DNA of 32,000 bases from Aquimarina pacifica (lineage in GTDB: Bacteria > Bacteroidota > Bacteroidia > Flavobacteriales > Flavobacteriaceae): assembly GCF_000520955.1 (NCBI RefSeq), contig NZ_JACC01000042.1, positions 1-32,000 on the forward strand. Reading direction: 5' to 3'. This document shows positions 3,148 to 11,892 of the stretch, piece after piece; the stretch's first letter is position 1; each line of letters starts with the position of its first letter. A program made the position numbers and the translations under genes. The notes below the pieces were generated by a model. That model did not search any database. It had not been told where the DNA came from and was given only the letters and a program-made list of their open reading frames with translations.

Positions 3148-4041
3148 TTATTTTTTAAGCTTTCCTTTTTTATGTTTTCCCATCTGAAATGTTCTTGAGA
3201 TATTAAATCCAAAATGAATATCTCCGCCAAAGAAATCACCAGTAGATTCGGTGATAAAACTTTTTTCTATCATTGTAATAGAGTTGGATAAAATCATCTG
3301 AAAAACATGTCCTCCGGTCTCTATGTCTACACCAAATGCAATAGAGTTTGTAGTTTCGAAAGAAGATAATTGGTCAAGGGTATAATAATATTCAGCATTT
3401 ATAGACACCCGATTACTAATTTTGATACGATTACCAATACCAACCGCCAAAATATCATGAGGATCATTGGTAAGAGCTACCGAGTTTCTATGGATATAAG
3501 TCGGAGATACTTGTAACGAAAAACCGGGACTAAATTTTCTGGCCATTAAAATTTGAGCTGTGTAAGACATCTTTTGACTTGCTGTAGGTTCATTAGCAGG
3601 GTCGAAGTCTTTTAGTGTTCTATAGGCTGCACTTCCAAACATAGAAACCGATACGGGTAACGAATTAGGTCCTGTGCTTTGTTTTAGTACTTTGTATTTA
3701 AAAAAACCATCATATGTTTTATCAAAACTGCTTCGACCCAAACCAAGCATAAGATCATTTGTTACTCCATACTCAAACGCAAAGCGAATATTTGATTGGT
3801 CCAAACCATAGAGTTCATCAATACCTGTATTTATTCTTCCGAAACGGTGGGAGATAAGAAATACCAATCCTTTTTTTGGACTATTCTCTATAGAATGCCC
3901 GTTTAATATCCGGGTTCCCTTAAAAGTAGCAATGGTTATTATTTTGGTTTCTGGAGATTCGTTTTCAAGAATATCAAAAAGATCTTGAGAAAATCCTTTA
4001 AGACCGATAGTCAAAAAAGTAAGAAAGATTAGTTTTTTCAT
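3148..4041 (-). CDS. predicted outer-membrane beta-barrel protein (DUF5777-like), paralog A
   Basis: 297 aa with a signal peptide MKKLIFLTFLTIGLKGFSQ. Alternating beta-strand pattern and a C-terminal aromatic-rich strand (IHFGFNISRTF). About 40% identical by eye to ORF 10987-11892. Confidence 0.7.
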   Translation of the reverse strand: MKKLIFLTFLTIGLKGFSQDLFDILENESPETKIITIATFKGTRILNGHSIENSPKKGLVFLISHRFGRINTGIDELYGLDQSNIRFAFEYGVTNDLMLGLGRSSFDKTYDGFFKYKVLKQSTGPNSLPVSVSMFGSAAYRTLKDFDPANEPTASQKMSYTAQILMARKFSPGFSLQVSPTYIHRNSVALTNDPHDILAVGIGNRIKISNRVSINAEYYYTLDQLSSFETTNSIAFGVDIETGGHVFQMILSNSITMIEKSFITESTGDFFGGDIHFGFNISRTFQMGKHKKGKLKK

Positions 4042-4046
4042 GATGT

Positions 4047-4589
4047 TTACTTATAAGGTTGGTGATCTAGAGTGAAATCTATTTTTACGACTTCTGCTAT
4101 ATTTTTAATTACGATAGAAGGAATCTTGATATTATATTCTTCGACTGCCACAGGAAAACTACCGATTAGGAGAATGTTAGAATCATTTTTTGTTATTTCA
4201 ACTTCGGTTTGAATCTTTTTCGAAACTCCATGGATAGTCAATAAACCTTCTACGGTCGCTGTTTGGGGTCCAGAGGTTATGGTAGAGAACTGAAGAATTT
4301 TTCCCTTAAAAAATGCTTTTGGATATTTGTCAGACTCCACGTAATTTTCATTAAAATGCTCTTGCATTAGTAATTTTTCGAACATAAATGATTTCATTAA
4401 TATCGATATAGCAATGTCTCCGGTTTCTGCATCAATAATACTCAGAACCTGATGGTTTTTTGCAGTAATATCCTCTAATGGTGAGTGAGAATAGAAGGAA
4501 GTGAATCCTTTTTTTGTTATAAATTTTTTCTGTGCCTGTGCAACGTTTATAAGAAGTAGGCTCATGAATAGAATATGTATTGATTTCAT
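4047..4589 (-). CDS. YceI-family periplasmic lipid/polyisoprenoid-binding protein, paralog A
   Basis: 180 aa with a signal peptide. The conserved block SFYSHSPLEDITAKNHQVLSIID...EHFNENYVESDKYPKAFFKG is typical of the YceI-like domain. About 55-60% identical by eye to ORF 10452-10997. Confidence 0.85.
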   Translation of the reverse strand: MKSIHILFMSLLLINVAQAQKKFITKKGFTSFYSHSPLEDITAKNHQVLSIIDAETGDIAISILMKSFMFEKLLMQEHFNENYVESDKYPKAFFKGKILQFSTITSGPQTATVEGLLTIHGVSKKIQTEVEITKNDSNILLIGSFPVAVEEYNIKIPSIVIKNIAEVVKIDFTLDHQPYK

Positions 4590-4764
4590 TACAAGATTTT
4601 TTGTTAGTATTTTATTGATGATTTGAGGTTGTTTTAACTACGACCAATGCGAATAAAAAACAAAGGATTTACATAATCTGTGAAAACAGAATTTGGCTAA
4701 AAAGGTAATGTCTTGTTTAATCAGGTATGAACGAATGATGCGCATTTTTTTCTTTTTTTTAGAA

Positions 4765-5190
4765 TTAGTTAATAAGAATACATTGTATAAGAATTACATC
4801 CATGAGGTAACCTGTACAGACTCCCTTTATGGTGACATCTTGATCTTTCTTTAGAGAAGTGATTTTTTGTTTTTCTTCGGGCGAAATATGACAAATAACA
4901 TTCCCTGAAAACGAATTATCACTTAGCAGTACGATAGCTTTACCATTTACAGTATCTAACTCAGATATTTTACCAGAAACCTCTATGATTTGGTCTAAAT
5001 ATTTTGAGTTAGCCGTATTTTCATCAGTGCTATACTCGTTTAATAGTGTACTTGAACTAGTTACTATATTTGGTGTGATACTAGCAATATTTGCCGTCTT
5101 AGTATTGTATATATTGTTTGCAATAAGTACACCACCCGTAATAGTGAACAGTATCCATACCATCAAAAGCATTCTTTTAGTATTTATCAT
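4765..5190 (-). CDS. membrane-anchored OB-fold protein (tRNA_anti-like family), paralog A
   Basis: 141 aa with an N-terminal TM anchor. The core LLNEYSTDENTANSKYLDQIIEVSGKISEL...VICHISPEEKQKITSLKKDQDVTIKGVCTGYLMDVILIQCIL matches the pattern of the OB-fold putative-lipoprotein family. Paralog at 10028-10459. Confidence 0.7.
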   Translation of the reverse strand: MINTKRMLLMVWILFTITGGVLIANNIYNTKTANIASITPNIVTSSSTLLNEYSTDENTANSKYLDQIIEVSGKISELDTVNGKAIVLLSDNSFSGNVICHISPEEKQKITSLKKDQDVTIKGVCTGYLMDVILIQCILIN

Positions 5191-5215
5191 AGTATTATTT
5201 ATAAGTAGGTAAGAA

Positions 5216-5590
5216 TTAATTATCTAAGGCTCCACTATCAATCCAGCATTTTATTAATTCTATCTCATCATTGGTAAGAGATCCTCCTTGTGGCATTCTT
5301 CTACTAACTACTTGCCCGCGAATGTTTTGAGCATTAATACTTATATTCTCATATGTTCTTAAATCAGGAAATCTGCTACCCCCGTGACAACCAATACAAT
5401 TGGTGTCGATAATAGATTTGACGTCATCACTAAATGAGATCGTAGTATCACATACTTCGCTTTGCTCATCAGTATCAGGATCATTTTGTTCTGGAGTATC
5501 ATTTTGCTCATTGCCAGTTTCTTCTTCTACATTGTTTTCGCAGGCTAAAAAAGCAATGCTTGCAACTAAAATCAAGAGTGTTTTTTTCAT
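5216..5590 (-). CDS. c-type cytochrome-like lipoprotein with acidic linker
   Basis: CIGCH heme-binding motif and a downstream RRMPQGG (candidate axial Met). Start trimmed to MKKTLLILVASIAFLAC (signal peptide plus lipobox) at 5590. The track ORF extends to 5650 through a non-signal leader. Contains an Asp/Glu/Asn-rich linker. Confidence 0.7.
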   Translation of the reverse strand: MKKTLLILVASIAFLACENNVEEETGNEQNDTPEQNDPDTDEQSEVCDTTISFSDDVKSIIDTNCIGCHGGSRFPDLRTYENISINAQNIRGQVVSRRMPQGGSLTNDEIELIKCWIDSGALDN

Positions 5591-5780
5591 TTTCAAAGGA
5601 GTTTTTGGGTTTGTTTTTTTCGAACGTATCTGTTCTTGTTGTTGATGCAAAGTAACCGCGAATAGCGGGCTTACATCAAATTAAACTGTATGAAAGTGCG
5701 AAAATTAGGGTTGAAAGGGAAAAAATAGAACTGAACTAAACAGCATATTTTGGGGTATTTCTGATTTTTTGGCTGTCCCT

Positions 5781-6610
5781 TCATTACAAGGAGGAATGAC
5801 GAAGTAATCTTATTAATGAGAATAATTAAGATTATAGAGATTGCTGTACTACGTTCGCAATGACGCGTTATTGTCATTACGAGGAGGGACGACGAAGTAA
5901 TCTTATTAATGAGAATAATTAGATTATATAGATTACTTCACTACGTTCACAATGACGTGTTGTATTGTCATTACAAGGATTAACGACGAAGTAATCTTAT
6001 TAATGAGAATAATTAGATTATATAGATTACTTCACTACGTTCACAATGACGTGTTGTATTGTCATTACGAGGAGGAACGACGAAGTAATCTTATTAATTA
6101 GAGTAATTAGATTATATAGATTACTTCACTACGTTCGCAATGACGCGTTGTATGTCATTACGAGGAGGAACGACGAAGTAATCTTATTAATTAGAGTAAT
6201 TAGATTATATAGATTACTTCACTACGTTCGCAATGACGCGTTGTATGTCATTACGAGGAGGAACGACGAAGTAATCTTATTAATTAGAGTAATTAGATTA
6301 TATAGATTACTTCACTACGTTCGCAATGACGCGTTGTATGTCATTACGAGGAGGAACGACGAAGTAATCTTATTAATTAGAGTAATTAGATTATATAGAT
6401 TACTTCACTACGTTCGCAATGACGCGTTGTATGTCATTACGAGGAGGAACGACGAAGTAATCTTATTAATTAGAGTAATTAGATTATAGAGATTGCTTCA
6501 CTACGTTCGCAATGACGTGTTGTATGTCATTACGAGGAGGAACGACGAAGTAATCTTATTAATGAGAATAATTAGTTTATAGAGATTACTTTATTATGTT
6601 CACAATGGTG
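5781..6610. repeat. tandem hairpin-unit array, left block (9 units of 93-94 bp plus a degenerate left arm at 6584-6610)
   Basis: The TCATTAC(G/A)AGGAGG... motif recurs at 5781, 5874, 5968, 6062, 6155, 6248, 6341, 6434 and 6527. The units starting at 6062-6341 are identical. Confidence 0.95.
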
Positions 6611-6622
6611 TACTTTTACTTT

Positions 6623-6922
6623 ATGAAGAAGTCACATGTATATTTTATGACTAATAAAAATAATACAGTAATCTATATTGGTGTTACAAGTAATTTATTA
6701 AAAAGAGTATATCAACATAAAATGAAAGTATACAAAGGATTCGCTTCTAAATACAATTGTGATAAACTTGTTTATTTCGAAGAATTTGATGACATTAATC
6801 AAGCAATTACTAGAGAAAAGCAATTAAAAGCAGGTAATAGAAAACGAAAAGAAGATTTGATAAATGCTAATAATTTAGAATGGAATGATTTATCTAATGG
6901 CTGGCTATTTAACTTCACTTAA
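6623..6922 (+). CDS. GIY-YIG nuclease family protein (small COG2827/URI-domain type)
   Basis: HVYFMTNKNNTVIYIGVTSNLLKRVYQHK...GFASKYNCDKLVYFEEFDDINQAITREKQLKAGNRKRKEDLI carries the GIY(VYF)...YIG motifs, conserved Arg and Glu, and the K-x-W/G-x-R-x-K tail typical of this family. The track ORF starts at 6596, but those extra 9 codons lie in the degenerate repeat arm, so ATG 6623 is preferred. Confidence 0.85.
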   Translation: MKKSHVYFMTNKNNTVIYIGVTSNLLKRVYQHKMKVYKGFASKYNCDKLVYFEEFDDINQAITREKQLKAGNRKRKEDLINANNLEWNDLSNGWLFNFT

Positions 6923-6932
6923 TCAAATGTCT

Positions 6933-7972
6933 TCATTACAAGGAGGAACGACGAAGTAATCTTACTAATGGGAATGCTATATTATACAGATTGCTGCACT
7001 ACGTTCGCAATGACGCGTTGTATGTCATTACGAGGAGGAACGACGAAGTAATCTTATTAATTAGAGTAATTAGATTATATAGATTGCTTCACTACGTTCG
7101 CAATGACGTGTTGTATTGTCATTACGAGGAGGAACGACGAAGTAATCTTACTAATGGGAATCTATATTATACAGATTGCTTCACTACGTTCGCAATGACG
7201 TGTTATTGTCATTACGAGGAGGGACGACGAAGTAATCTTACTAATGGGAATCTATATTATACAGATTGCTTCACTACGTTCGCAATGACGTGTTGTATGT
7301 CATTACAAGGAGTAACGACGAAGTAATCTTATTAATGAGAATAATTAGATTATATAGATTGCTACACTACGTTCGCAATGACGTGTTGTATGTCATTACG
7401 AGGAGGAACGACGAAGTAATCTTATTAATTAGAGTAATTAGATTATATAGATTGCTTCACTACGTTCGCAATGACGTGTTGTATTGTCATTACGAGGAGG
7501 AACGACGAAGTAATCTTACTAATGGGAATCTATATTATACAGATTGCTTCACTACGTTCGCAATGACGTGTTATTGTCATTACGAGGAGGGACGACGAAG
7601 TAATCTTACTAATGGGAATCTATATTATACAGATTGCTTCACTACGTTCGCAATGACGTGTTGTATGTCATTACAAGGAGTAACGACGAAGTAATCTTAT
7701 TAATGAGAATAATTAGATTATATAGATTGCTACACTACGTTCGCAATGACGTGTTGTATGTCATTACGAGGAGGAACGACGAAGTAATCTTATTGATGAG
7801 AATAATTAGATTATAGAGATTGCTTCACTATGTTCGCAATGACGCATTATTGTCATTACGAGGAGGGACGACGAAGTAATCTTACTAATGAGAATGCTAT
7901 ATTATATAGATTGCTTCACTACGTTCGCAATGACGTGTTATTGTCATTACGAGGAGGAACGACGAAGTAATC
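6933..7972. repeat. tandem hairpin-unit array, right block (12 units of 90-94 bp, including ~2.2 copies of a 368-bp higher-order repeat)
   Basis: The TCATTAC motif recurs at 6933, 7025, 7119, 7209, 7300, 7393, 7487, 7577, 7668, 7761, 7853 and 7944. Pairs 7025/7393, 7119/7487, 7209/7577, 7300/7668 and 7393/7761 are each exactly 368 bp apart. Confidence 0.95.
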
Positions 7973-8020
7973 TTTTAAAAATAGAAAGAAATTGTTCAAA
8001 TGGTAATGAGATAGGTAACA

Positions 8021-9142
8021 TTACATATTTAACCATTGTTTGAACTCAGAAGCCTTATTTTTGCTAATAATGATTTCTACCGAAGAATCAGGTCGTACTA
8101 ATATCTTAAGCTGACTATTACCATATTTTATAATTTTTTCTATTGCCGCAATGCTAATTATAAATTGTCTATTTGCTCTAAAAAATATAGTAGTATCTAG
8201 GTTTGTATAAATATCATCAAGGCTATTATTACTAGTAGACTTTTTACCATCCTTAGATATAACATAAGTGATCGTGTTTTCTGTATAGATATAGGCAATC
8301 TCTGAAATTGCAATAGGAATTAATTCGTGTCTAATATAAGTAAGGATTCTTTTTTTACCAGAATCAGATAGGGACTCAGGTACATCCTCTTGAGTATCAA
8401 TTTCTGAGACCACTTTTTGTTGGTATGCAACAAGGTCTGTGTTAAGCTTCGATAAACTTATAACTTCGGTCTCTAAGTTTGTGTTTTTAAGTTCTAGTTG
8501 TTTTTCATAATTACTACCAATTAATCGAACAGCCAAAAATGAAGATAAAATGATAAGAACTCCCATTATAATAAATATATAGTAGAAGTTTCTTCGCAGT
8601 TTTTTCATCTGATCAGACATTTTTCCTACATTAATATGAGCCGCAACGATCCAATCAGAATTTTTTACAGGAGCTATATGTATGATTTCTGATGCTATCT
8701 CGAATGAATCAATACTTTGGGAACTATTAGATTTTTTTCTATTAATAAGAATTTCATATAATTCATCAGAGTTGATTTCTTGATTGGCAGAAGATAGAAG
8801 TAACTTATTCGAACTTACTTTTAGTCCTACTTTTGTAATATCAGGGTGACAGATTTCTTTTCCTGACCAGTCAAATAAACAAATGAAGCCAGTTTCGGTA
8901 TTAGAATTTTCTATTGTTTTTTGAACATCAGAAATGACTTTAGTTTTATCAATTCCTCCCTCAAGAAGAAACCCAATTAAATTAGCCATCTCGTTGGCTT
9001 CTCGTTTACTGGATTCTATTTGTACTTCGATTTGCTGGTTGGCACTTACTCTAATAAAATAGTGAACACTTAGAGAAGCTATAATCAAAAAAATAATTGA
9101 TATAGAGATAAAAGTCAGAAAATATAATTTGTCTTTTTTCAT
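8021..9142 (-). CDS. membrane-bound one-component regulator: TM, Cache-like sensor, TM, coiled coil, LytTR DNA-binding domain
   Basis: 373 aa with two hydrophobic segments (residues ~8-30 and ~185-207). The extracytoplasmic block GFICLFDWSGKEICHPD resembles Cache-domain signatures. The C-terminal ~100 aa (ILTYIRHELIPIAISEIAYIYTENTITYV...FFRANRQFIISIAAIEKI) match the LytTR pattern. No receiver domain. Confidence 0.8.
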   Translation of the reverse strand: MKKDKLYFLTFISISIIFLIIASLSVHYFIRVSANQQIEVQIESSKREANEMANLIGFLLEGGIDKTKVISDVQKTIENSNTETGFICLFDWSGKEICHPDITKVGLKVSSNKLLLSSANQEINSDELYEILINRKKSNSSQSIDSFEIASEIIHIAPVKNSDWIVAAHINVGKMSDQMKKLRRNFYYIFIIMGVLIILSSFLAVRLIGSNYEKQLELKNTNLETEVISLSKLNTDLVAYQQKVVSEIDTQEDVPESLSDSGKKRILTYIRHELIPIAISEIAYIYTENTITYVISKDGKKSTSNNSLDDIYTNLDTTIFFRANRQFIISIAAIEKIIKYGNSQLKILVRPDSSVEIIISKNKASEFKQWLNM

Positions 9143-9620: not shown

Positions 9621-10027
9621 TAACAAAAAATACTTCTGCCGGAGATTCTCATCTGGTCAATATTTTATACCATGCTTCGGGGGGAGCGTCACAGTAAAAC
9701 CAAAAGATGAGAATACCGGTACAAGAATAATGATCGATGTAGTATTTAATGTATAAGATGAGTTTTATAGTAATATTAAAGTTTTGATTCTCATTGTATA
9801 AAGTGTTAAATAATAAATAACGTTACCATTGATATAATAGATGTGTACAATAAAAATTTAAGTTCGTTTCGTTTGGTTATTTGAAGAAGGTATGGGAGTT
9901 TAGTATAACTATTCTCCCGTATACTTCTATTTATGTTAAAATTTTATAAATTGTAAAAAAAATATAGAGAATGATTGGTGGATACTTTTGATGAGAATTA
10001 ATTTTGAATATGAGGTTGCTCAAGCCT

Positions 10028-10459
10028 ATGAATAAAAAAAACAAAATAATATATTTGACAGGAGGTATTGCACTATTTTTTGGTCTTTTTTTGTGGATAA
10101 ATAAAGGAGAATCTATTGATGTTACCACCATTTCTACAGAGGTAGGAATACGTTCGGAAGTATTGATATCTAAGTTTCGCGAAAATGAAGAATTAGCGAA
10201 TTCTATGTATACCGAAAAAGTAATAGAAATTAGTGGTGTCATAAAAGAAATCACTTTTTTGAACAATAGAACAACGATTGTATTGTATGGTAATGATAAA
10301 GGATCTTACATATTATGTGATATGCAATCAAGTCAAAAACAAGAAGTCAAAGACCTTAAAAAAGATCAAAACGTTTCAATAAAAGGTATTTGCAAAGGAT
10401 TTCTTAAAGATGTTATAGTGTTAAACTGTATTTTGATTAATAAAAAAATGGATGAATAA
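10028..10459 (+). CDS. membrane-anchored OB-fold protein (tRNA_anti-like family), paralog B
   Basis: Same architecture and conserved C-terminal block (KKDQNVSIKGICKGFLKDVIVLNCILI) as ORF 4765-5190. Start trimmed from 10004 to MNKKNKIIYLTGGIALFFGLFLW. Overlaps the next gene by 8 nt. Confidence 0.7.
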   Translation: MNKKNKIIYLTGGIALFFGLFLWINKGESIDVTTISTEVGIRSEVLISKFRENEELANSMYTEKVIEISGVIKEITFLNNRTTIVLYGNDKGSYILCDMQSSQKQEVKDLKKDQNVSIKGICKGFLKDVIVLNCILINKKMDE

Positions 10460-10997
10460 AATTCTAGCTCTCGTATTTTTTTTGATAACCATTACCAGCT
10501 TTGATTCAAAATCAGATCAGGTAATCGCGCGTCAGGGACAGGTTTCTTTTTTTTCTTATACTTCTGTAGAAAATATTGAAGCAAAAAATAATCAAGTGTT
10601 AAGCATTCTTGATCTGTCAAAAAATGAAATAGCCATCAGTATGCTCATGCGAGCGTTTGTATTTGAGAAATCACTTATGCACGAGCATTTTAATGAGAGC
10701 TATATAGAATCAGACATATATCCCAAAGCTACTTTTGAAGGTGCAATCGTAAATTTTGATCCACTAGCAGAAAAGCAAGTGAGAATCATAAAAGGAATAT
10801 TAAGTATTCATGGTATTGATAAAGAAATAGAAATAAAAACTACTATTGAGAATACGAATGAATCCTATATTCTAGAGGGAGACTTTACGGTAGAGGTTAA
10901 GGATTTTGATATCAAAATCCCGCCACTATTAGCAAGCAACATAGCAAAAACTATATCAATAAAATTTAGATTCGAATATCAGCCGTATGAACAATAG
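10452..10997 (+). CDS. YceI-family protein, paralog B
   Basis: 181 aa with a signal peptide. Contains SFFSYTSVENIEAKNNQVLSILD...EHFNESYIESDIYPKATFEG. Confidence 0.85.
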   Translation: MNKILALVFFLITITSFDSKSDQVIARQGQVSFFSYTSVENIEAKNNQVLSILDLSKNEIAISMLMRAFVFEKSLMHEHFNESYIESDIYPKATFEGAIVNFDPLAEKQVRIIKGILSIHGIDKEIEIKTTIENTNESYILEGDFTVEVKDFDIKIPPLLASNIAKTISIKFRFEYQPYEQ

Positions 10998-11892
10998 CAC
11001 ATGTTTTGTTTTATGTTTTTTTATAATGATGACATTGAGTATATCGGGACATGCCCAGAATTTACTTGATGCATTAGAAAAAGAGTATCCCGATACACCT
11101 CAGTATGAGATGGCTACTTTTAAGACCACGCGAATTGCATTGGGACATTCTATAGAAAATCGAAAAAAAGGAGTATTAGAAATAAGAACGACCAATAGAT
11201 TTTGGAATCTTCCTAATAATCAAGATAGTCAAAGTTTTTTTGTTGACAAAGTAAGTAGCAGAATAGCACTTGAGTACGGAGTTTCTGATAGAATGACAAT
11301 CGGGGTAGGAGGAACTACCTTTGATGGTGTTTTTGATGGTTTTCTAAAATATAAATTGATTAGACAGCGTAGTGATGCTAAAGGCTCTCCTCTAAGTGTT
11401 ACACTATTTCAAGGAGGATCCTATAGAAGCAAGCGGTTCGGAAATATTAATGCATTTGATGAGTTTTATGATAAAGTAGCTTTGACAAGCCAAGTATTAA
11501 TTGCACATAAATTTAATCCCAAATTTTCAGTACAATTGGCACCTACTTTTATTCATAGAGGGTCAACCGTTTTTGAAGAAGATCCAGAAAATCAATTTGC
11601 ATTGGGTATTGCAGCGAGACATAAGATAGGTGGTCATGCGTCAATAATATCAGAATATTATCATGTAATGAATCCCCTAGAATCTATTGATACTTATAAT
11701 GCCTTTGCACTAGGTGTAAATTGGGAGTTAAGTGATGTAATGTTACAATTCTATATGACAAATGCAAGAAGTACGGTAGAAGACGCATTTATAACACAAA
11801 CAACAAATAACTTTAATTTTAAAGATGGAAATTTTCACTTTGGCTTTAATGCAACATTTATTTTACACTTAAAGAACAAAAAACTAAAGTGA
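10987..11892 (+). CDS. predicted outer-membrane beta-barrel protein (DUF5777-like), paralog B
   Basis: 301 aa with a signal peptide. The N-terminal LLDALEKEYPDTPQYEMATFKTTRIALGHSIEN parallels paralog A. C-terminal FHFGFNATFIL strand. Overlaps the upstream gene by 11 nt, consistent with an operon. Confidence 0.7.
   Translation: MNNSTCFVLCFFIMMTLSISGHAQNLLDALEKEYPDTPQYEMATFKTTRIALGHSIENRKKGVLEIRTTNRFWNLPNNQDSQSFFVDKVSSRIALEYGVSDRMTIGVGGTTFDGVFDGFLKYKLIRQRSDAKGSPLSVTLFQGGSYRSKRFGNINAFDEFYDKVALTSQVLIAHKFNPKFSVQLAPTFIHRGSTVFEEDPENQFALGIAARHKIGGHASIISEYYHVMNPLESIDTYNAFALGVNWELSDVMLQFYMTNARSTVEDAFITQTTNNFNFKDGNFHFGFNATFILHLKNKKLK

Follow-up and report, generated by a model that had tools for sequence, protein, structure and literature searches.

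The 2.2-kb repeat block of Aquimarina pacifica lies between two minus-strand genes, facing the 3' end of one and the promoter region of the other. It was found to consist of 41 hairpin elements, 21 on the plus strand and 20 on the minus strand, grouped around a GIY-YIG gene. The earlier note had described one array filling the intergenic space, but the block is divided by an open reading frame for a 99-aa GIY-YIG protein (6623-6922, plus strand) into two arrays, one on each side of the gene. We use the window to mean the whole 32-kb stretch of DNA that was analysed; copies of the elements were sought outside the block and none was found in the remaining 30 kb of the window. The plus-strand elements are called R and the minus-strand elements L, and the gene takes the place of a short spacer between a degenerate L element and an R element. 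The features are as follows.

5780-6609, no strand: left array, 9 R and 9 L elements alternating (R, linker, L, spacer)
5780-5809, plus: R element, type A, 30 nt, left array edge; TTC replaces GTC
5839-5864, minus: L element, type G, 26 nt
5873-5902, plus: R element, type A
5931-5956, minus: L element, variant GTCATTGTGA...GTAATC
5967-5996, plus: R element, type A variant
6025-6050, minus: L element, variant
6061-6090, plus: R element, type A consensus GTCATTACGAGGAGGAACGACGAAGTAATC
6119-6144, minus: L element, in its own orientation GTCATTGCGAACGTAGTGAAGTAATC
6154-6183, plus: R element
6212-6237, minus: L element
6247-6276, plus: R element
6305-6330, minus: L element
6340-6369, plus: R element
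6398-6423, minus: L element
6433-6462, plus: R element
6491-6516, minus: L element, type G GTCATTGCGAACGTAGTGAAGCAATC
6526-6555, plus: R element
6584-6609, minus: degenerate L element directly 5' of the gene; 6 mismatches, start in its own orientation ACC, not GTC
6610-6622, plus: short leader from the degenerate L element to the ATG; contains TACTTTTA
6623-6922, plus: ssn-like gene, 99-aa single-domain GIY-YIG nuclease (Pfam PF01541, E = 6e-17)
6932-7972, no strand: right array, 12 R and 11 L elements
6932-6961, plus: R element, 9 nt past the ssn stop codon; TTC replaces GTC
6989-7014, minus: L element, type G
7024-7053, plus: R element
7082-7107, minus: L element, type G
7118-7147, plus: R element
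7174-7199, minus: L element, type G
7208-7237, plus: R element
7264-7289, minus: L element, type G
7299-7328, plus: R element, variant
7357-7382, minus: L element, type G variant
7392-7421, plus: R element
7450-7475, minus: L element, type G
7486-7515, plus: R element
7542-7567, minus: L element, type G
7576-7605, plus: R element
7632-7657, minus: L element, type G
7667-7696, plus: R element, variant
7725-7750, minus: L element, type G variant
7760-7789, plus: R element
7818-7843, minus: L element, type G variant
7852-7881, plus: R element
7909-7934, minus: L element, type G
7943-7972, plus: R element, right array edge; the LytTR stop codon is 48 nt away

The tandem repeats of 93 bp that had been claimed were observed at 5781-6607 (8.9 copies, 95% matches) and at 6933-7974 (11.3 copies, 89% matches), both with period 93, and higher-order periods of 275 and 368 are also present in the block. 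One 93-bp period is made up of two inverted elements, a 30-nt element on the plus strand (GTC-ATTAC-GA...GAA-GTAAT-C) and a 26-nt element on the minus strand (GTC-ATTGC-GA...GAA-GCAAT-C). The 30-nt element matched the plus strand 21 times against 0.00 expected from 100 shuffles and its inverted partner was found 20 times. In the window, the GTC is kept in 19 of the 21 R and 19 of the 20 L elements and the 3' C in all of them. The order is like that of a BIME cluster, with head-to-head pairs 8-10 nt apart and tail-to-tail pairs 26-29 nt apart. All the parts described before can be seen: three helices, a GAGGAG segment, an 8-10-nt 'loop' and AT-rich linkers of three types (26-29 nt). The spurious repeat-derived ORFs are present too. 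A CRISPR array is rejected, in line with the earlier note, since the elements alternate in orientation and both spacer kinds are themselves repeated; a coding repeat is likewise rejected on the anatomy of the block.

The 99-aa protein shows 100% identity with a protein of Aquimarina pacifica. Its Pfam GIY-YIG domain spans residues 3-75 and other significant domains are absent. The protein shows 45% identity over 88 aa (E = 2e-29) with the 94-aa N. gonorrhoeae orthologue of SsnA, and tblastn in a 7.3-Gb database gave E = 4e-17; its homology is thus within the E < 1e-10 used for Ssn by Chenal et al. 2025. Residues Y7, Y18 and E65 align with Y6, Y17 and E64 of SsnA, the residues mutated in published work (PMC11893778), and are invariant in a nine-sequence cross-phylum alignment. 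As far as sequence can tell, the protein therefore has the single domain of about 90-115 aa, the homology and the three catalytic positions of an Ssn nuclease. More than 1,250 homologues were found, identity across Flavobacteriaceae genera is 77-86%, and comparison of the gene with 35 orthologues gives a dN/dS of about 0.09. No model specific to the Ssn family is found in NCBIfam or PADLOC, and phmmer gave no match among PDB chains at E <= 0.01. In the leader, TACTTTTA resembles the TAnnTTTG -7 box of Bacteroidota promoters and is a candidate promoter box.

Our comparison of 81 loci from different species shows that gene and repeats occur together. The density of half-sites is 3.06 per kb up to 1 kb from the gene against 0.24 per kb beyond 1.5 kb, and half-sites flank the gene on both sides in 51 of the 81 loci and on at least one side in 70. 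The consensus cGTCATTRCGA...GAAGYAATCT was observed in 45-63 loci. Tandem arrays abut the gene in about 30 loci, and the A. pacifica array is the largest among the 81. The orientation of the elements around the gene varies, with L-gene-R in 23 loci, L-gene-L in 11, R-gene-L in 9 and R-gene-R in 7. Homologues of 35-50% identity are also flanked by GTC-tagged hairpins, with lineage-specific stems; for example, such hairpins were found in distant loci of N. gonorrhoeae (dRS3/NTS), S. meliloti, Azospirillum lipoferum, Novosphingobium and an Acidobacteria MAG. A loss of gene-proximal GTC as a general rule of self-protection was rejected because an intact cGTC is located right after the stop codon in many loci.

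A perfect terminal stem of exactly 5 bp was found in 315 of 524 unique elements, and beyond it lie a GA/GAA internal loop, one or two further pairs and a triloop. One stem position covaries, being G-C (302) or A-T (184) against G-T (34) and A-C (21), and the covariation of the outer stem represents few independent events because it rests largely on two ancient haplotypes. Inside the element, pair 11-17 of the 26-nt class is AU in 21 and GC in 18 cases, and pair 14-18 of the 30-nt class is GC in 18, AU in 7, CG in 5 and UA in 1. The 26-nt class has 94.1% of its cells paired against 89.2 +/- 0.7 in shuffled sets and the 30-nt class 96.6% against 88.0 +/- 0.9, values reached by 0 of 500 shuffles in each class. 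These compensatory changes within both classes argue for a hairpin inside each element. Taken over 80 related loci, the covariation shows that the conserved pairing lies inside the 26-30-nt element and not between neighbours, so each element would fold alone. Both covariation-backed hairpin subtypes could offer new specificities to tools that cut ssDNA.

The closest known counterpart is the Ssn nucleases with their NTS/SRM repeats (Chenal et al. 2025, Nat Commun 16:2388), of which N. meningitidis SsnA (NMV_0044, CDD cd10448) is an example. Shared features are a GIY-YIG protein with one domain and about 94-99 aa (45% identity, catalytic Y, Y and E kept) and oriented hairpins on both sides of the gene with a 5' GTC, a stem that starts with ATT and a C after ...AAT. 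In both systems the motifs also cluster in both orientations, as in an NTS-ssnA-NTS architecture. Neisseria NTS, however, has a continuous 8-9-bp stem whereas the A. pacifica stem is interrupted; here two subtypes (26-nt G-type and 30-32-nt A-type) alternate in opposite orientation, and the strictly periodic tandem array at the gene differs from the hundreds of dispersed copies known there. The published SRM search pattern, HGTCWYN(0-2)YYVSBRHN(0-5)WNVSBRGN(0-2)RNCYNB, is a heuristic from 29 genomes (PMC11893778). It gave 0 matches in the window and in the 80 related loci, whereas the Neisseria locus has 9 matches and the Azospirillum locus 4. The interrupted stem and the longer interior of the flavobacterial elements lie outside what it accepts. 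The pattern thus misses a whole flavobacterial, and probably also an acidobacterial, class of motifs; therefore the reported presence of motifs near the gene in 71% of Ssn homologues (PMC11893778) is likely to be an underestimate.

By sequence, the repeats match the "CGTC REPs" (Di Nocera et al. 2013, BMC Genomics 14:522), a class found in Bacteroidetes among five phyla and including Neisseria dRS3 and Rickettsia RPE-4/-6. The (C)GTC tag, the A-T pairs at the start of the stem, the short 3' tail and the predominance of head-to-head dimers are common to both. The 8-9-bp stems and 4-5-nt loops of CGTC REP families 1-4 are not found in the A. pacifica elements, and no dedicated enzyme was reported for CGTC REPs whereas a GIY-YIG gene is embedded in this cluster. 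What places the block with SRMs and CGTC REPs is the presence, on both sides of the gene, of 26- and 30-nt hairpin-forming inverted repeats with GTC immediately 5' and C immediately 3' of the palindrome.

Two other kinds of system show a partial likeness. E. coli BIME-2 consists of alternating Y and Z units with two spacer kinds, and the A. pacifica block similarly has two palindromic unit types that alternate in orientation with two spacer kinds. It also has one conserved nuclease gene amid its own repeats, as RAYT systems of Enterobacteria and Pseudomonas do, and its head-to-head dimer resembles the REPIN doublet. The enzyme, however, is a hydrolytic GIY-YIG nuclease and not an HUH/Y1 transposase, the tag is GTC and not GTAG, and no sign of transposition chemistry was seen; on these features of the locus, the GIY-YIG gene and the GTC tag, the block falls outside the REP/RAYT (REPtron) class. 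The earlier note had named a known REP/BIME-type element with a RAYT partner as counting against its reading; of this, the element type holds but the partner does not, being the GIY-YIG enzyme. Freestanding GIY-YIG homing endonucleases (relatives of phage T4 Seg/I-TevI) are similar in that the gene lies at or beside predicted cut sequences and shows presence/absence polymorphism among related genomes. In contrast to these, the A. pacifica protein has no extra DNA-binding domain, its predicted substrate is a set of multicopy ssDNA hairpins with motifs intact beside the gene, and the ssn protein is conserved and partly syntenic across genera.

We therefore consider it highly probable that the block is an Ssn/Ssn-related-motif (SRM) locus in which ORF 6623-6922 encodes an Ssn-family nuclease and the 41 elements are its cognate hairpins. 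The proliferated hairpin element with a GIY-YIG association proposed in the earlier note agrees with this, since the elements flank a GIY-YIG gene, but its claim of rarity does not stand, as the Ssn/SRM system was published in 2025 and the CGTC-tagged REP class in 2013. The block is an unusually large and regular example of the known system and not a new kind of element, and it does not overturn current understanding. What appears to be new is that the flavobacterial motif escapes the SRM pattern, that two subtypes alternate and that the array is so large. A conspicuous, previously unannotated repeat block is thereby assigned to a system that is one paper old, and the Ssn system is extended to marine Flavobacteriaceae.

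For SsnA and three homologues, binding to their own motif is confined to ssDNA and to one strand, and cleavage occurs upstream of the motif, in which the GTC tag and the 3' C are of critical importance (PMC11893778). In Neisseria, a role in restricting ssDNA has been shown. By analogy with the Neisseria and Wolbachia enzymes, from which the ssDNA and strand specificity and the cleavage site are extrapolated, the most likely mechanism is that each element would form its own hairpin when the DNA becomes single-stranded during replication, transformation or conjugation. The nuclease would then bind the hairpin strand-specifically, by means of the GTC tag that precedes the stem and the C that directly follows it, and would cut the bound strand a few nucleotides upstream of the GTC. 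The predicted cut position here is inside the short head-to-head spacers. The two R elements with TTC (5780, 6932) are expected to be bound without being cut.

In Aquimarina sp. AD10 and A. gracilis, nine flanking genes are found in the same order but ssn and the half-sites are absent. These two syntenic sites show that the block is a lineage-specific insertion, and that the whole block entered this intergenic site in the A. pacifica lineage. The empty sites are a clean natural example of the gain of ssn plus repeats, which bears on whether the system is mobile or domesticated. After entry, the array probably expanded in place as units recombined unequally or slipped during replication, which is suggested by five consecutive near-identical units (99-100%; left-array units from 6060 to 6514 are 99-100% identical) and by a 4-unit (368-bp) higher-order repeat in the right array, where 6978-7277 and 7346-7645 are 99% identical; the recombination or slippage hotspot considered earlier is in keeping with these recent signs. 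Breaks made by the nuclease may, speculatively, have stimulated the local expansion, and the 41-element array is a convenient substrate for asking whether the nuclease makes the repeats unstable.

Alternatively, transposition could have built the array, with ssn and its hairpins as an active IS-like or 'REPtron'-like selfish element whose REPIN-like hairpin dimers are copied singly beside existing copies by the nuclease, as has been suggested for RAYT/REP/BIME systems. The two congeners without the block are consistent with this, and in most species the ssn loci have differing genomic contexts; for example, the Azospirillum block sits between sufB and sufC, and the flanking genes of the window showed no synteny with the 80 ssn loci. 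Furthermore, the gene is present in two full copies in some arrays (L043, L044) and in truncated copies in others (L016, S. meliloti), gene-less element clusters were found kilobases from ssn, and the gene is located in the head-to-head spacer, the predicted cleavage zone, in a plurality of loci. Chenal et al. also remarked on a resemblance to IS (PMC11893778). Neither target-site duplications nor defined element ends were found, and the remaining 30 kb of the window has no other copy. Several groups of loci are syntenic across genera, which together with the strong purifying selection suggests a vertically kept, possibly domesticated ssn gene. GIY-YIG enzymes hydrolyse DNA, and we know of no strand-transfer or ligation activity in the superfamily, which speaks against transposition. 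Blocks of identical units and a 4-unit higher-order repeat are also the product of unequal crossing-over and not of serial single insertions. This reading is on the whole unlikely, though with some chance of being right. We regard as slightly more doubtful the proposal that flavobacterial Ssn is a self-propagating 'REPtron', a GIY-YIG counterpart of RAYT/REPIN in which cleavage in the head-to-head spacers would drive both the insertion of gene and repeats at new sites and the tandem amplification of dimers; its unit may be a conserved heterodimer of G.A-pair-rich hairpins, with the 26-nt G-type on one strand and the 30-32-nt A-type on the other.

The long hairpins between elements could themselves be functional, independently of the nuclease, as a zipper of competing 65-84-nt stems that acts as a DNA cruciform, a recombination hotspot or a replication barrier. 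The mutually exclusive long folds of the earlier note do exist as predictions, with ssDNA energies of -10 to -11 kcal/mol (z -1.9 to -2.5) for L-spacer-R and -13.4 kcal/mol (z -4.7) for R-linker-L, and for a 275-nt stretch the value is -33.6 kcal/mol (z -3.75). Single elements, with weak nearest-neighbour ssDNA energies of -1.2 and -2.2 kcal/mol (z about 0; -8.9 for Neisseria NTS), are predicted to be less stable than the long inter-element hairpins, and the energy model may give too little weight to the conserved GA/GAA internal loops. However, the conserved pairing and the compensatory changes are within each element. Of 293 neighbouring pairs from up to 36 loci, 217 (91 of 120 head-to-head, 126 of 173 tail-to-tail) combine two elements that are each Watson-Crick inside but do not match one another, and the opposite pattern was observed in 1 pair only. 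Neighbours are thus systematically heterotypic, so that both long helices carry a mismatch or wobble, which does not fit a 65-nt double hairpin as the unit. In addition, some relatives (L060) have same-orientation element arrays, which are unable to form long hairpins. We find a function of the long hairpins to be very unlikely.

The copy number could be misjudged because the block comes from one draft assembly and five consecutive units are 99-100% identical. It was considered whether assembly produced so large and regular an array as an artefact, from a true locus of only a few units. The protein is present in that assembly only (1 contig), and the 465 bp of near-identical units and the 99% identical 368-bp repeat exceed short-read length. 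Many homologues are located on very short metagenome contigs, which shows that such repeats break assemblies. Comparable gene-flanking arrays were nevertheless observed in about 30 independent assemblies, among them a complete genome (L044, Mariniflexile sp. AS56) and chromosome-level records (L049), and the unit variants of the A. pacifica block follow a consistent higher-order pattern and are not collapsed. An artefact is accordingly judged highly improbable.

An RNA-level role, with REP-like stem-loops in a LytTR read-through transcript or the ssn mRNA that stabilise, terminate or insulate transcripts as REPs do in E. coli (PMC3733652), would suit an array between a gene's 3' end and the next promoter region, but it is highly improbable: no Rfam family matched the array at E <= 1 (a search of 5000-9000 gave a chance carA match outside it), no terminator-like sites were found, SsnA binds neither RNA nor dsDNA (PMC11893778), and it would be left unexplained why the repeats are so tightly linked, across phyla, to the gene of a DNA nuclease. 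The structured RNA array suggested by the earlier note loses ground on the same points, and its argument that a C-A mismatch becomes G-U in minus-strand RNA fails on the outer helix, which is opposite (G-T on the plus strand, C-A on the minus strand), so that the wobble/mismatch asymmetry favours neither strand.

That the left array edge retains part of another ssn copy was rejected, as the similarity begins only at the R element. Close relatives of ssn were absent from IMG/VR viral contigs, where three weak partial matches were seen; G-type motif matches in viral contigs were mostly single and could be due to chance, and an Ssn-like ORF was found on only 1 of 120 motif-hit contigs. Literature on GIY-YIG together with repeats, RAYT, MITE, YhbQ or box sequences gave nothing relevant, while the pairing of 'dRS3' with 'GIY-YIG' leads to the Ssn paper.

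The repeats at 5781-7972, which the earlier note had described as one 2.2-kb array of 93-bp double-hairpin units, are real but form two arrays flanking a GIY-YIG nuclease gene (ssn), an ORF to which that note gave too little weight. Tandem Repeats Finder gave two arrays of period 93, one of 8.9 copies at 5781-6607 (95% matches) and one of 11.3 copies at 6933-7974 (89% matches, with higher-order periods of 275 and 368). The gene is as follows:

6623-6922, + strand, GIY-YIG ORF of 99 aa between the two arrays (Pfam E = 6e-17)

A 30-nt element, GTCATTACGAGGAGGAACGACGAAGTAATC (type A, R below), was found 21 times on the + strand at ≤3 mismatches, with 0.00 copies expected in shuffles, and its imperfect inverted partner, GATTRCTTCACTACGTTCGCAATGAC (type G, 26 nt, - strand, L below), 20 times; the rest of the 32-kb window holds no further copies of either. 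The elements are ordered R, (linker, L, spacer, R) x 8, linker, degenerate L, gene, R, (linker, L, spacer, R) x 11, and the gene therefore stands where one short spacer would be. All of the structural features noted earlier were found in the array (helices, GAGGAG segment, 8-10-nt 'loop', three types of AT-rich linker), as were repeat-derived ORFs in the window. The window contains the largest cluster of half-sites (single elements with boxes cGTCATTRCGA ... GAAGYAATCT) among the loci examined, with 39 within 1 kb of the gene (median 5, next-best 22), and its array is the largest and most regular of these, the copy number being that of one draft assembly. The GTC tag is lost in the left-edge element (5780-5809, TTC) and in both elements adjoining ssn (6584-6609, ACC in its own orientation; 6932-6961, TTC). 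Tag loss beside ssn is no general rule because other loci keep an intact cGTC adjoining the gene. In Neisseria the tag is required to cut and not to bind (PMC11893778).

The window protein matches an Aquimarina pacifica protein at 100% identity; its homologues across Flavobacteriaceae, at 77-86% identity, number more than 1,250. We fetched 80 loci, each from a different species (81 including the window). Tandem repeats of period 90-210 abut the gene in about 30 loci, and the boxes or their reverse complement occur in the flanks of nearly all. Half-sites number 3.06 per kb up to 1 kb from the gene, against 0.24 per kb past 1.5 kb, and flank the gene on both sides in 51 of the 81 loci. Two subtypes, G-type (24-26 nt, 63 loci) and A-type (30-32 nt, 45 loci), alternate in opposite orientations. 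Among the relatives L002-L080, 16 loci have an upstream element whose end lies 20-23 nt ahead of the ssn ATG. In many loci a conserved TATATTT that resembles the Bacteroidota -7 box (TAnnTTTG) precedes the ATG by 3-5 nt, pointing to a promoter that overlaps the upstream element and to a nearly leaderless ssn mRNA. Clusters of the same elements lacking ssn were observed 2-6 kb from the gene in three loci (L020 9752-10276; L007 26-218; L053 2775-4030); some Flavobacteriaceae genomes thus carry dispersed elements too, whereas the remainder of the window has none.

The conserved unit is the single element. Within half-sites, the variable base of ATT[R]C covaries with that of G[Y]AAT (G-C 302, A-T 184; G-T 34, A-C 21). 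Most neighbouring half-sites differ in type, and in 91 of 120 head-to-head and 126 of 173 tail-to-tail pairs the two members are each internally Watson-Crick but mutually mismatched; only one pair has the reverse pattern. Formal pair counts confirm that every element is an independent hairpin. Pairing reaches 96.6% of cells in the 30-nt class (88.0 +/- 0.9 in shuffles) and 94.1% in the 26-nt class (89.2 +/- 0.7), values equalled by 0 of 500 shuffles in each case. As examples, pair 7-26 of the 30-nt class is AU 20 / GC 11 and pair 14-18 is GC 18 / AU 7 / CG 5 / UA 1, while the inner pairs of the 26-nt class are AU 21 / GC 18 and CG 31 / UA 6. Conserved GA/GAA internal loops break up the stems of both classes and may form sheared G.A pairs. 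Nearest-neighbour energies are at odds with one hairpin per element: single-element ssDNA folds are weak (-1.2 and -2.2 kcal/mol), against -10 to -13.4 kcal/mol for the long hairpins proposed earlier. Such long hairpins may therefore arise physically, but the covariation within elements shows that they are not the conserved fold. In a Urechidicola MAG (L060, 5299-6896), about 21 elements on both gene sides lie nearly all in one orientation at 60-63-nt spacing, an arrangement incapable of long inter-element hairpins.

As judged from its sequence, the block combines an Ssn nuclease gene and its cognate hairpin repeats of the CGTC type. The earlier observation is confirmed in part and its interpretation supported in part: a proliferated hairpin element is supported, the long hairpin as conserved unit and the implied novelty of the system are not. 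The nuclease-hairpin association is already published for the Ssn family (Chenal et al. 2025, PMC11893778). SsnA of N. meningitidis is a 94-aa single-domain GIY-YIG protein (CDD cd10448) that binds the NTS motif CGTCATTCCCGCGMAVGCGGGAATCYRG only as ssDNA and on one strand only, cuts a few nucleotides upstream of it and is inactive on dsDNA and RNA; the GTC tag is critical to cutting and the C past the palindrome to binding (PMC11893778). 'Ssn-related motifs' (SRM) lie near the gene in 71% of homologues, the system restricts transformation by NTS-bearing DNA in Neisseria, and Chenal et al. pointed out a likeness to IS elements and RAYT/REP/BIME; their main text does not mention Bacteroidota or tandem arrays (PMC11893778). 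The window protein shares 45% identity with the gonococcal orthologue of 94 aa (E = 2e-29), keeps the equivalents of SsnA Y6, Y17 and E64, and is under strong purifying selection (dN/dS ~0.09). Its elements resemble the CGTC-tagged REPs of Di Nocera et al. 2013 in their GTC tag, A-T-first stem, short 3' tail and head-to-head habit. Those REPs are known from alpha-proteobacteria, Neisseria (dRS3), Rickettsia, Chlorobi, Bacteroidetes and others, and were judged to 'apparently lack a dedicated transposase' (PMC3733652). A tblastn search of plasmid and chromid records with the window protein gave matches in just the CGTC-REP taxa, at 35-50% identity. The linkage of motif and gene crosses phyla, the gene of the distant homologues being flanked in each case by GTC-tagged hairpins with lineage-specific stems:

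N. gonorrhoeae, hairpin CGTCATTCCCGC..GCGGGAATC, beginning 3 nt past the stop codon, in a cluster
S. meliloti, hairpin CGTCATCCTCGGG..CCCGAGGATCCA, flanking the ssn homologue
Azospirillum lipoferum, hairpin CGTCATCCCCGCGAAGGCGGGGATCCAG, in a block between sufB and sufC
Novosphingobium, hairpin flanking the ssn homologue
Acidobacteria MAG, hairpin GTCATTCTGAGCG...CGAAGAATCTG, flanking the ssn homologue

The A. lipoferum block (hairpin-ssn-hairpin, 1373-1881 of L083, from plasmid AZO_p3 of strain 4B) looks like an insertion into the suf operon.

By analogy with the Neisseria and Wolbachia enzymes, the window nuclease would bind and cut its own elements. Once either strand is single-stranded, each element would fold and be bound, and the bound strand would be nicked a few nucleotides 5' of GTC. 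In the window, the predicted nick sites fall in the head-to-head spacers of 8-10 nt; the + strand would be served by the 21 type-A elements and the - strand by the 20 type-G elements. More speculatively, nicks could enlarge the array by promoting unequal exchange, and the system could limit uptake of element-bearing ssDNA.

That ssn and its repeats are a mobile element is a reading kept alive, although not demonstrated, by two full ssn copies inside tandem duplications (L043 5330-6294; L044 5998-7337), by truncated copies (the 3' end in S. meliloti, L082 1150-1820; the 5' end in L016, 6488-6592) and by gene-less element clusters kilobases away from ssn. Full and partial copies in arrays indicate that the duplication unit can span gene plus repeats.

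The presence of the block is polymorphic. The window's flanking genes were found at none of the other 80 ssn loci, several groups of which are syntenic with one another across genera. We located orthologous regions via the neighbouring LytTR protein, and nine flanking genes were found in the same order in Aquimarina sp. AD10 (complete genome) and A. gracilis, where both regions lack ssn (tblastn E >= 1) and half-sites. Between LytTR and cytochrome c, AD10 has a spacer of 326 bp and the window one of ~2.4 kb. With two empty syntenic sites, the block is therefore a lineage-specific insertion whose gain these sites record; clean loss from both AD10 and A. gracilis is less likely. Following this gain, amplification was local and recent: within the array, identity is 99-100% among the units from 6060 to 6514, and a 368-bp block of four units recurs at 99% identity, a pattern that marks unequal recombination or slippage of recent date and not a series of independent insertions. 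Mirrored paralogous three-gene cassettes (tRNA_anti-like, YceI and a DUF5777-type outer-membrane protein) flank the LytTR gene (8021-9142) at 3148-5190 (-) and 10004-11892 (+), an arrangement kept in AD10 and A. gracilis.

What appears new is modest. The published SRM search pattern gave 0 matches in the 81 loci (9 in the Neisseria locus, 4 in the Azospirillum locus), and the flavobacterial elements all escape it. The interrupted hairpin, with its two conserved subtypes alternating in opposite orientation, the size and regularity of the window array, and the empty sites showing gain of the block also appear to be new. The alternating G-type and A-type subtypes recall the Y and Z units of E. 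coli BIME-2.

The G-type motif pattern also matches at least 120 IMG/VR viral contigs; among the 120 listed (L085-L204), only L088 has an Ssn-like ORF. Single matches could be due to chance given the size of the collection, and the few contigs with 3-6 copies (e.g. L120, L136, L101, L151, L107) may be prophage or host DNA. Every L element with its linker yields a sigma-70-like TTGCGA-N18-TATAAT match, once per unit on the - strand (5831-7930). These matches make up 19 of 27 promoter-like hits (region expectation 17.5) and are probably irrelevant in Bacteroidota, whose promoter consensus differs.
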